DNA of 64,000 nucleotides from Polyangiales bacterium (GTDB taxonomy: Bacteria; Myxococcota_A; Polyangia; Polyangiales; Polyangiaceae): assembly GCA_038231275.1 (NCBI GenBank), contig JBBRLQ010000009.1, positions 128,001 to 192,000 of the forward strand, in the 5' to 3' direction. Of the stretch, positions 37,886 through 41,065 are shown piece by piece; within the stretch, counting starts at the first letter, position 1, and each line of letters starts with the position of its first letter. The notes beneath the pieces are model-generated. The model was given only the letters and a program-made list of their open reading frames with translations, did no database searches and had not been told where the DNA came from. A program made the translations under genes and the position numbers.

Positions 37886-37981
37886 GGCGACGCCTTCCGA
37901 AGGACATCGACCGCCACTGGGGCGCCTCGACCGTCGCGCGATCGACGGACCGCGGAGATTGCCCACTCGGTTCCCGCCAAG

Positions 37982-40001
37982 TTAAGGGGCCGCAGCCGCA
38001 TAGCCGTCCTGCCACTGACTACGGATGACGAACGGCTGAGCGAGCTGGGCCACGTTTCCGAGGAACAGTTCGATGCTCTGGTAGCTCGCCCCGTTGAAGT
38101 CCACCCAAGTGGCCGCCGCGACGGTCGCAGTTGCCAGCGCCCCCGTCGCGTCGAACGCGAGTGTGCCAGCGCCGACGTCGACGTTCGTCCCCGGCGTGCC
38201 ACCCTTGAGGCAGCCACCATCAACGAGCAGGTGATAGTCCCACGCGTCAGGCCCCGTCTTCGCGAAGTAGGCGTCGACCGCGCAGGCTCCGCCGAGAGAG
38301 TCGTAGACCAGCATCGACGTCCGGAAATTCGACGAAGCCTCGGGCGAGGCGGGGTCGAACGGGAGAGCGGGCACGGAAGCGTCCGCGTCGAGGTTTCCGC
38401 CGATGGCCATCACCGAGGTCGGCCGCGGAGGAGAAAACGCGACGTGGGCGTTCTGCGTTACGGAGACTCCGGCGCAGGCGAGGGTCGACGGCGGCGGCGC
38501 GAGCTCCGTCACGCTGCGGAAGCGCAGGGTCAGCGGTTAGAGCGGGGTCGGCGCCAGGGAAGCTCCTCGTGAGAGGGACGAGGATCGCCGTGCTCGACAG
38601 CATGCCGTCACTGTCGAAACGGAGCTCACCGCTACCAAGCGCGACCAATGCGGCCGACGTCGCGCCAAGAACTCCGGAGCCAGCCGCCTCCACGGCGTAG
38701 CTCCACCGGTGGAGGTCCGTCTTGGCGAACGTGATGGCGACCCAAAGCCCGGTGGTGAGTGGATCGTACGCTCGGACGGTCGTGCCCGCCGGAGCGTCCG
38801 CGTCGAGGTTTCCGTCGACGACGATGCCGACGGTGGCGTGCACCGCCCCCGGCACCCCGATCATCGACGGGGACGTGAACTGCGTGACGCCAGCCCGCCC
38901 GGTCCCTCTGAAGGCAATCGGGGCTCCGAAGCTCAGCGCGATGGGCTGATCGGGCAAAGCGTCGACGAACGACACCCGCGTGGCCGTGTCGACCCAGACC
39001 GTGTTGAGCGCCCCCCCGTACGTGAACGTGAGGCTGCCGCTGCCGACCTCCACGTTGGTGCCTGGTGTGCCGCCCACGAGGCGAGCGCCGTCGATCAGCG
39101 CGTGGTAGTCCCAGGCACCGCAGGCCGTCCTCACGAAGTAGATGCCGATGGGTTGTGCGACGCCTTGCGTGTCACGCACCGTGGTCGTCACCCCGGCGTT
39201 CGAGGTGCTGGAAGGATCGCGCGGATCCCATGCGCGGTAGAGCATCCACGACCACGCGTCGAGGTTGCCTGCGATGTCGACGCGCGCGCCCGCGGGCGGT
39301 GAAGGGGCCGGTGACACGTGCTGGTGCGTGATGTGGCCGTCTTGCGCCAATGCGAGCACGACGGAAACGGCGTCCTTCTGGGCCGACGTGTAGGAACCGA
39401 GCCCGAAGTGAACCCCGATCGCCTGGCGCGACGTGGCGCTTCGGAAGCTAATCGCGATCGGCGCGACGTTCGCGACGTTGACGAGCGCACCGGTCGCGTC
39501 GAACGCGAGCGTGCCGCTCCCCACCTCGGCTTGGATGCGCGAAGCTCCGTCTTCGACGTCCGCACCCTCGGTGAGGGCGTGGTAGTCCCACGTGGCGGGA
39601 CCGGTCTTGGCGAAGTAGAAGACGAGCGGGTGGGCGGCGCCGTTCTCGTCCGCGATATCCACAGACACCGAATAGCCGGAGGTCTCCGCCGGTATGTCTG
39701 GATCGAACGGACGGGACGACACGGGTCGACGCGCATCGAGGTTCACCGCCATCGACACCTTCTCCGTGGCCATCGACACGAAAGAGCCGCCGCTGTGTTC
39801 GGGGAGCACGGGCGGAGCGCCGCGCGGAGAAGGCCCGCGCGCAGAGTCGCTCGAGATCGAGGGCCCGCCGGGTGCGCGCCCTCCGTCGTGATCGGGCGGG
39901 GAGGTCACGACTTCGGGCGGCGCGCCGGTGGGAGCGGGGCTGAGGCTGCATCCGGCGAGAAGAGCGGACAGGAGGAGCACTCGAGCAGCGGGGGAAATCA
40001 C
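37982..40001 (-). pseudogene. Lipoprotein with four FlgE D2 (FlaE)-like repeats; +1 frameshift at 38539 (real or sequencing error)
   Basis: Lipobox LLAGC; repeats of NLDA...FDP..P..SN...YDSLG....YFAKT....WDYH...G.GTL.FD..G.L, ending QDGY; removing base 38539 joins the two track ORFs. Confidence 0.8.
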
Positions 40002-40013
40002 GGCGCCATGCTG

Positions 40014-40029
40014 AGCAAGCACCGTGCCC
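40014..40029 (-). promoter_or_regulatory. sigma54 (-24/-12) promoter of the FlaE-repeat gene
   Basis: GGGCACG-GTGC-TTGCT on the minus strand. Confidence 0.7.
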
Positions 40030-40160
40030 TCGCCGCGAGAGCGTACGTCGCCAACTCTTCAAGCCCCGCACCAATGTTGGCGCCAGCCCGCTGACGGCCC
40101 GGTGGCAAGATCGCGTCCGTCAGGCCGCGCCAGCGCGCGCGCAGCTCTGACCGGACCCGG

Positions 40161-40397
40161 TCACTCCACCGCGACCGCTTCCGCCTCCTTGCAGAGCAGC
40201 GTCGCCGCGCTGTAGCTCGGGTTCTCGATGCACTCCTTTCTCCACAAAACCTCGTACCCGTGGGGGCACGCGCTCGCCGCGCCTGCGACGGTGAATGGCT
40301 CGATGTGCACCGGCGCGTACGCCGGGCTGGCGGCCGGTCGGTCGTTGCAGGCGTAGAGCAACGCGAGCGCCGCCAAGACGGCGAATCGGAACGTCAT
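40161..40397 (-). CDS. Small lipoprotein
   Basis: Hydrophobic N-terminus with lipobox LLYAC; three further Cys. Confidence 0.6.
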   Translation of the reverse strand: MTFRFAVLAALALLYACNDRPAASPAYAPVHIEPFTVAGAASACPHGYEVLWRKECIENPSYSAATLLCKEAEAVAVE

Positions 40398-40522
40398 ACC
40401 TGCTAGATGGAGCGCACGCGCGCCGCTGATCTCGACTTCGACCGCCTCCGCGTCCCGAGCCGCCGGAAAACGGACTCCGGTGTCGTCGAGCGAATGGCCG
40501 CCTTAAGATGTATCCTGCCCTC

Positions 40523-41065
40523 GTGCTGAGCCTCCGTCACACCTGCCGAACGTCGCGCGTGCTCGCCCACGCATTCGTCCTCGCCTGCGCCGCGTGGGCG
40601 TGCACGGCGTGCGCGAAGAAGCCCACGATGCACCTGAACCACGCCGAGATCAGCGGCTTTCAGGTGGCGACGTTCCCGCCGAGCGTCGTCATGACCGTGG
40701 TCGTCGACGTGTTCAACCCCAACGGCTACGACGTCGCCATTCGCGCGATGCGCGGCCAGGTCATCATGGCGGACAAATACACGATCCCCCTGGATTACCG
40801 GCCCCCCGGCGACGGCCTCTGGCTCCCCGCCGGCAGGACGACGCAAGTAAGCACGCCCGTCGCGATCCCGGTGAACCTCGCCATCGCGCTCGTGGGCGAG
40901 GCCTTCGCGTCGCCGACGATCTCGTATCGCCTCGTCGGCAAGGCCGACGTCACCGGCACGCGCTCATTCCAGATCGAGAAGGACGACTACGCGCTCGACG
41001 AGCCGGGCACCGTCACGCGCGAGCAAATCCAGGCGATCATCCCGAACACGCTGCGCCCCTACTGA
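40523..41065 (+). CDS. LEA_2/WHy domain lipoprotein
   Basis: Signal ending TAC; VDVFNPNGYD...G.V motif. Confidence 0.75.
   Translation: MLSLRHTCRTSRVLAHAFVLACAAWACTACAKKPTMHLNHAEISGFQVATFPPSVVMTVVVDVFNPNGYDVAIRAMRGQVIMADKYTIPLDYRPPGDGLWLPAGRTTQVSTPVAIPVNLAIALVGEAFASPTISYRLVGKADVTGTRSFQIEKDDYALDEPGTVTREQIQAIIPNTLRPY

Follow-up and report, generated by a model that had tools for sequence, protein, structure and literature searches.

The 64,000-nucleotide stretch analysed here (the window; Polyangiales bacterium, contig JBBRLQ010000009.1) carries on its minus strand, at 37982-40029, a gene encoding, in order, a signal peptide with a lipobox, a disordered tether rich in Pro, Gly and Ser, and four FlgE_D2 (PF07559) domains, D2 being the outermost domain of the flagellar hook protein FlgE. 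We consider it probable, with considerable room for doubt, that this is a recently inactivated, lineage-specific representative of a so far undescribed class of D2-only lipoproteins exported through Sec, and that its four D2 modules came from the organism's own flgE.

Domain content and fold

A frame break, described below, divides the translation into an upstream and a downstream piece. Pfam matches FlgE_D2 to three stretches of the upstream piece (E 2.7e-35, 122.3 bits) and to one stretch of the downstream piece (E 1e-21, 78.4 bits), all above the curated cut-off of 22.7 bits, with repeat 3 matching in part. The scan of the genome with PF07559 gives 78.9, 58.6 and 42.9 bits for three units of the gene. 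This is the sole Pfam family with E below 0.1 on either piece. The hook families D0 (PF00460), D1 (PF22692) and C-terminal (PF06429) have no match at E<=1 in either piece, and the NCBIfam FlgE equivalogs score at most 76 bits against cut-offs of 365-801 (400 for the best-scoring one), all of the seven or eight families listed per piece being below cut-off.

Repeat 4, modelled with AlphaFold2 (AF2) from a 93-row alignment, has a predicted local distance difference test (pLDDT) score of 97-98 over the domain. All 25 Foldseek matches of this model in the PDB at E<=0.001 are FlgE chains (8z5y, 1wlg, 7cbm, 3a69, 9wx3, 6ndw, 5ay6, 5az4 and 5npy are among them); the best has E 1.5e-9, the TM-score is 0.62-0.67 on the query, and the next match lies at E 0.41. 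The fold search covered repeat 4 only; repeats 1 and 2 were modelled with high confidence. Sequence matches to solved chains are FlgE in 5 of 5 cases. The FlgE D2 identity proposed in the sequence-only reading (an earlier reading of this DNA made without database searches) is thus borne out by both Pfam and structure. The best ESM Atlas clusters score 0.83, below the level taken as meaningful, and are automatically named "FlaE D2 domain-containing protein". The AF2 model of the first 495 residues (predicted TM-score, pTM, 0.45) shows a signal helix, the disordered tether and confident domains joined by low-confidence linkers; together with the low pTM, this fits beads on a string.

The sequence-only reading had also described a lipobox, a Pro-rich linker and four repeats starting with NLDA and ending in QDGY, and these are present. 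The lipobox reads L-A-G-C with its Cys codon at 39950-39948, a Pro/Gly/Ser-rich stretch follows it, the NLDA starts lie exactly at 39743, 39266, 38810 and 38395 (approximately 39740, 39265, 38810 and 38393 had been given), and QDGY is followed directly by TAA. Among the motifs listed for the repeats, YFAKT, WDYH and G.L.FD..G.L are found; YDSLG occurs in repeat 4 only, and repeat 3 has WSYAV in place of WDYH. The precursor begins M-ISPAARVLLLSALLAG-C, with an Arg in the n-region. By sequence rules it has what defines a bacterial lipoprotein: a charged n-region, an h-region and a lipobox within about 40 residues of the start. In the AF2 model the hydrophobic stretch (P0001 residues 11-23) is helical. 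Myxobacteria have a lipoprotein sorting rule, and the residue after the lipobox Cys is here Ser; we predict lipidation and a location at the outer membrane or cell surface.

Two further points of the sequence-only reading, the absence of the D0/D1 polymerisation segments and a membrane anchor with non-flagellar export, agree with these results: no D0, D1 or C-terminal family was found, and a Sec/lipoprotein signal stands in for flagellar type III export. Because D0 and D1 are lacking, export by the flagellar type III system and polymerisation into a hook are impossible. The four-D2 protein is not a hook subunit, and the idea that it might be an alternative one fails on the missing D0, D1 and C-terminal families, the equivalog score below cut-off and the position outside the flagellar cluster.

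Table 1. Features of the D2 lipoprotein gene, in window positions (HMM, hidden Markov model; ORF, open reading frame; GC3, G+C content at third codon positions)
Feature	Position	Strand	Basis
Sigma-54-type promoter motif GGCACGGTGCTTGC (GG at -24, GC at -12)	40015..40028	-	Sequence; genome-wide motif spacing
Signal peptide with lipobox LLAG/C, residues 1-18; likely start GTG 40001-39999	39948..40001	-	Sequence; promoter spacing
Pro/Gly/Ser-rich disordered tether, about 61 residues	39765..39947	-	Sequence; pLDDT ~40, P0001 residues 25-79
Repeat 1, FlgE_D2	39333..39743	-	Pfam stretch P0001 94-230 = profile 1-142; genome scan 58.6 bits; pLDDT 87-98
Repeat 2, FlgE_D2	38850..39266	-	Custom D2 HMM, P0001 253-391, 139.6 bits; pLDDT 89-98
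Repeat 3, degenerate FlgE_D2 split by the frame break	38432..38810	-	Partial HMM match, 36.9 bits; pLDDT 72-91 for the part in the first frame
Frame break CTAA; a single +1 step joins both frames	38537..38540	-	Frame reading; GC3 switch; read-through product
Arg-rich out-of-frame tail of the 591-aa ORF, not coding-like	38247..38536	-	G+C by codon position 0.865/0.646/0.594
Repeat 4, FlgE_D2, best preserved, ends QDGY	38000..38395	-	Pfam E 1e-21; pLDDT 97-98
Stop codon TAA	37982..37984	-	Sequence

Frame break and origin of the repeats

The sequence-only reading treated 37982-40029 as a single gene, which the frames contradict: with translation table 11 there are two ORFs, one of 591 aa (38247-40022) and one of 176 aa (37982-38512). 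A TAA at 38539-38537 interrupts the frame in which repeat 4 lies. GC3 tracks the first frame (0.82) as far as about 38540 and the other frame (0.83) beyond it, and the 96-codon tail of the first frame has a GC3 of 0.59 and the codon-position signature of a wrong frame. When CTAA (38540-38537) is read as one L step, an unbroken 672-residue product results, and its junction ...SFPGADPAL-PLTLRF... aligns with ...SFVDALPDQPIALSF... of repeat 2, which indicates one extra base inside repeat 3. We do not treat the 176-aa ORF as a gene of its own, because it starts within repeat 3 and carries no signal peptide.

Over 37955-38720, the break included, a 766-nt Logan contig (depth 8.9) agrees with the genome without any difference or gap, so the break is not one assembler's quirk. 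The sole public run holding the sequence is one sediment metagenome, probably the source sample of the genome, and it is available as contigs; among the runs listed as holding the sequence there is none of RNA. Several features may be counted as signs of decay or dispensability: the degeneracy of repeat 3, a GC3 of 0.82-0.83 in the gene against 0.86-0.92 in neighbouring genes, the lack of an 11-residue GGTGxDG loop in repeat 4, and the absence of the gene from same-genus genomes despite conserved synteny at recA. The gene in this genome is probably a recent pseudogene and the copy dead; otherwise, a truncated product with two intact domains and a misfolded stub may be made.

The D2 domain of the organism's own FlgE is 55% identical to repeat 4 (132 residues), 54% to repeat 2 (136 residues), 40% to repeat 1 and 32% to repeat 3, and the repeats are 30-47% identical to each other. 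The phylogeny against true FlgE that the sequence-only reading called for places repeats 2, 3 and 4 with the D2 domains of the organism's own and same-genus FlgE, and repeat 1 elsewhere (IQ-TREE quick search, 68 D2 units; Shimodaira-Hasegawa-like approximate likelihood ratio test, SH-aLRT, 88 for the group). The D2-only database proteins P0014 and P0017 join this group. Repeat 3 entered the tree read through, with X at the break. A FastTree of 222 D2 units recovers the same nearest neighbours. The tree data exclude D2 units that cover under 110 positions of the profile, along with three duplicate proteins and two fragmentary loci. Branch lengths are 0.04-0.2 for FlgE and 0.3-1.7 for D2-only units, the longest being repeat 3 (1.72). 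The sequence trees show that repeats 2-4, at least, descend from the hook gene of the genus, and the gene would therefore be a local offshoot of its own flgE. In both trees the D2-only units branch among FlgE D2 units that belong to different lineages, which suggests, at moderate support, that D2 was recruited repeatedly into D2-only proteins.

The gene lies among recA, a ComM-like Mg-chelatase ATPase, a LEA_2 lipoprotein and an adenylate/guanylate cyclase. No other flagellar gene adjoins it, as the sequence-only reading stated for the window; the flagellar cluster (flgD, fliK, flgE) is on another contig. recA and the genes upstream of recA are collinear with same-genus genome G001 at 82% identity up to 37886, and the D2 gene falls at a synteny break between genus members (37886-40580). 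No counterpart of it was found in either of the two same-genus genomes. Just upstream of the gene, at 40161-40397 (-), there is an ORF for a 78-residue, Cys-containing lipoprotein (lipobox LLYAC, GC3 0.91). It has no Pfam match and is 83% identical in DNA to a stretch of a same-genus genome in a different neighbourhood. In G001 and G002, other contigs carry this small ORF and the LEA_2 gene.

D2-only relatives, promoter and flagellar genes of the host

We found the architecture to be more widespread than a word-indexed protein search with the 495-aa piece indicated (only its own product and one FlgE; this search is insensitive). An exhaustive search of 1.84 billion representative proteins gave 498 matches at E<=0.001. 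We sorted 152 relatives (149 from the exhaustive search, one from the word-indexed search and two cluster members) by means of HMMs for D2 units and for the flanking regions, the latter derived from 14 true FlgE proteins. Hook flanks are present in 76 relatives and absent from the other 76, of which 42 have two to four D2 units and 34 have one unit (some of these may be fragments). A lipobox-like N-terminus occurs in 37 of the 76 flank-less relatives by a lenient custom pattern. Pfam scans of 77 relatives agree with the HMM sorting and also show combinations with FlgD_ig, TSP_3 and DUF7151; in 18 of the 21 D2-only relatives first scanned, Pfam detects no family other than PF07559. The protein had been called an orphan, a claim that falls, since dozens of D2-only proteins with one to four units, many with lipoboxes, occur in metagenomes and related genomes. 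The sequence-only reading knew of no description of the architecture, and the literature we searched likewise contains no account of D2-only lipoproteins.

Among related genomes, G021 encodes an intact 401-aa lipoprotein with two D2 units (a 55%-identical counterpart is found in another Polyangiaceae genome), G006 an intact 184-aa lipoprotein with one, G416 a 540-aa Cys-rich protein with two, and G454 a 663-aa protein with two D2 units and an Ig-like domain (FlgD-type by eye). None of the intact relatives is in a flagellar cluster or has a conserved neighbour. P0013 and P0116 have repeated D1 plus D2 units. The source databases name P0005 and P0008 "hypothetical protein" and P0006 "flagellar hook protein FlgE". 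Lipoproteins that join a FlgD Ig-like domain to two FlgE D2 domains are encoded at L052:5698-7689 (+) and include P0123 and P0126; in them the outer domains of two flagellar proteins have been combined for reuse away from flagellar clusters. The single-protein search for related loci found nothing in genome contigs or metagenome contigs, and searches with narrower alignments found 4 and 6 loci. Metagenome locus L040 (P0017, the nearest relative of repeat 4) was rejected as an intact orthologue, being a lone partial D2 beside an opposite-strand gene.

A cysteine both before and after D2 (within ~17 residues before and ~12 after the unit) is found in 53 of 71 complete D2-only units and in 0 of 62 FlgE units (P0005-P0153, e.g. 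P0005, P0006, P0009 and P0010). The pair probably forms a disulfide tying the D2 ends that D1 holds in the hook protein. By sequence, the bracket is absent from all four repeats of the window.

The sigma-54 motif noted upstream by the sequence-only reading is credible by its positioning genome-wide. The site reads gGGCACG-GTGC-TTGCT, compared with TGGCACG-N4-TTGCW, in which the GG and GC elements stand 10 nt apart. GGCAC-N5-TTGC has 90 matches in the genome, about 115 being predicted from base composition by our own arithmetic, so there is no excess. By rough gene calls, 47 of the 90 are intergenic. At 31 of the 90, a long coding-like ORF starts 12-15 nt downstream, with a mode of 13 nt (14 sites), compared with 1/74, 4/273, 11/170, 2/69 and 0/67 for five control motifs at the same spacing. 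The fixed spacing points to a sizeable set of leaderless sigma-54 transcripts in this genome, which has rpoN. Most of the 31 spaced sites precede genes for lipoproteins or secreted proteins. The D2 gene has the modal 13-nt spacing from promoter to GTG 40001; we take this as the start rather than GTG 40022 because of that spacing and because GTG 40022 lies inside the motif. A leaderless transcript beginning at GTG 40001 is credible from the sequence. No sigma-70 promoter came out of a scan for such promoters and for terminators; the terminator-like sites numbered 2, where 1.1 would be expected.

Of the 90 matches, the flagellar cluster accounts for only 2, one before flgD-flgE and one before fliD. 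A search for an upstream element common to the D2 gene, flgD and fliD promoters gave only scattered 11-mers with one mismatch, and the related D2 lipoprotein genes of L027, L028 and L024 have no upstream sigma-54 motif that scores 8/10 or better. As the motif is not specific to the flagellum, no common element was found and the relatives lack the motif, the promoter does not tie the gene to the flagellar regulon.

The sequence-only reading assumed an organism without flagella. This premise fails: the same genome (9.28 Mb, 164 contigs, 94% complete) encodes a complete flagellar cluster with a true FlgE on contig C15, at about 95-135 kb (loci L046-L048). We find genes for the export gate and ATPase (FlhA, FlhB, FliO/P/Q/R, FliF/G/H/I), the switch and motor (FliM/N, FliL, MotA/B), the hook, rod and rings (FlgE, FliK, rod proteins, the L- and P-ring proteins FlgH and FlgI, FlgK, FlgL), the filament (three flagellins, FliD, FliS) and regulation (FlhF, CsrA, a sigma-54 activator). 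The 432-aa FlgE has all four hook families, D2 included. A Maf/MptE-like gene lies inside this flagellar cluster of a Polyangiaceae genome. Of the 24 other same-family genomes searched, 11 have FlgE-type matches, and a phylum-wide sample of 301 genomes has PF07559 matches in 115. A 2021 preprint mentions that uncultured Myxococcota have flagellar assembly genes. In a class-level sample of 251 genomes, 91 had any match; roughly ten had extra matches, each of them with a FlgE-sized match as well. The remaining 160, which lack FlgE, gave no D2 match with this query.

Readings of the gene and comparison with known systems

In the reading we prefer, a recently inactivated D2-only lipoprotein derived from flgE, transcription would proceed from the gene's own sigma-54 promoter as a leaderless mRNA from GTG 40001. 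The product would be a Sec-exported, lipid-anchored envelope protein, with its signal peptide and lipobox followed by a flexible tether of ~60 residues and then by four independently folding beta-barrel modules copied from D2. The one-base frame break in repeat 3 would leave either a dead gene or the truncated product. Through the exposed faces of its D2 domains, the intact form may have acted as a scaffold or binding array at the cell surface. The roles proposed in the sequence-only reading (adhesin, decoy or prey-interaction factor) are hypothetical.

Several points weigh against this. Lipidation and sorting are predictions from sequence rules. The contig that confirms the break probably comes from the genome's own source sample and so is not independent, and contigs drop minor alleles; an intact allele may exist in the population. 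Repeat 1 falls outside the own-FlgE group, with an SH-aLRT of 85 for another position, and all tree supports are moderate (144 columns). Repeats 1, 2 and 4 keep the scores and predicted folds of sound domains and GC3 retains its coding signal, so any inactivation must be very recent.

Alternatively, the living population may carry an intact gene and make the full 672-residue, four-domain lipoprotein; the extra base would then reflect a minor allele or a mistake in sequencing or assembly. One +1 step gives a complete frame with a junction that aligns with repeat 2, the best-preserved unit (repeat 4) and the repeat-frame GC3 of 0.83 both lie downstream of the break, and depth is only ~9. A second assembler's contig is nonetheless identical with no gaps over the site, the site (CTAACC) has no long homopolymer, repeat 3 around it is already degenerate and the gene is missing from same-genus genomes; we give this possibility a distinctly smaller chance than inactivation. 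The same +1 step at CTA-A, with CTA a rare codon in a 70% G+C genome, might instead be a programmed ribosomal frameshift that tunes the ratio of three-domain to four-domain product. We think this highly improbable, as the site has no stop codon or known shifty heptamer and the zero frame continues for 96 codons, +1 tRNA re-pairing (GCT to CTC, CTA to TAA) is impossible, and no intact relative examined needs a shift.

A different function is conceivable in which the D2 array is an accessory of the flagellum, anchored in the envelope and docked on the D2 lattice of the cell's own hook as a brace or collar, or acting as a D2 decoy for hook-targeting agents. The hook D2 domains form an exposed layer in which each contacts its neighbours (FlgE structures such as 1wlg and 6k9q), all genomes with a confirmed D2-only protein have a FlgE-type gene (G000, G006, G021, the L028/L029 genome, G416 and G454), the 160 class-level genomes without FlgE lack D2 matches, and the sigma-54 motif is shared with flgD-flgE and fliD. 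Descent alone, however, predicts the co-occurrence with FlgE. The gene and its relatives are outside flagellar clusters without conserved flagellar neighbours, most motif matches beyond the two flagellar ones precede unrelated lipoprotein genes, no shared upstream activator site was found, and the related genes examined lack the motif. We regard an accessory role as unlikely. Extended to the whole group, it would make D2-only lipoproteins a new accessory class that reaches the hook from outside through Sec/Lol and docks by D2-D2 contacts, bracing or marking the hook or acting as a decoy for phages or predators, with the gene in the window a young member just arisen from flgE and being lost; this too has little probability in our view.

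On the preferred reading, of a lipoprotein built from D2 and lately inactivated, the locus and its relatives would show that a flagellar part exported by type III secretion has repeatedly been taken over for Sec-dependent lipoproteins, and so provide a clear case from nature of a machine component that became a module in its own right. The D2 fold has so far been known from hook proteins only, every significant PDB match being FlgE. In most D2-only lineages a cysteine pair appears where D1 held both ends of D2. There is also a warning for annotation, as at least one D2-only protein (P0006) is labelled as a hook protein. The copy in the window is probably dead, which limits its own value.

Helicobacter pylori FlgE2 (5npy) has the same D2 fold (rank 25, E 9.9e-4) and is a paralogue of FlgE whose gene lies away from that of the main hook protein. 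FlgE2 keeps D1-type and terminal segments, is a flagellar type III substrate and no lipoprotein, and has one D2 where the window protein has four. Compared with FlgE itself (Salmonella 1wlg, 3a69 and 6k9q; Vibrio polar hook 8z5y), each window repeat is a D2 domain by Pfam, by sequence match to solved chains and by fold match (searched with repeat 4), and the repeat boundaries, from NLDA to QDGY, coincide with the D1/D2 junctions. The window protein differs in lacking D0, D1 and the C-terminal family, in having four tandem D2 domains where FlgE has one D2 inserted in D1, and in having a Sec signal with lipobox and being encoded outside the flagellar cluster. It also resembles the uncharacterised D2-only proteins (P0005, P0006, P0008, P0016 and those of G021, G416 and G454), with which it shares the lipobox, a low-complexity tether and one to four tandem D2 domains. 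Most of these have a Cys-bracketed D2, unlike the window repeats, and some carry FlgD_ig, TSP_3 or Cys-rich spacers; window repeats 2-4 are closer to the FlgE D2 of their own genus than to the D2-only proteins.

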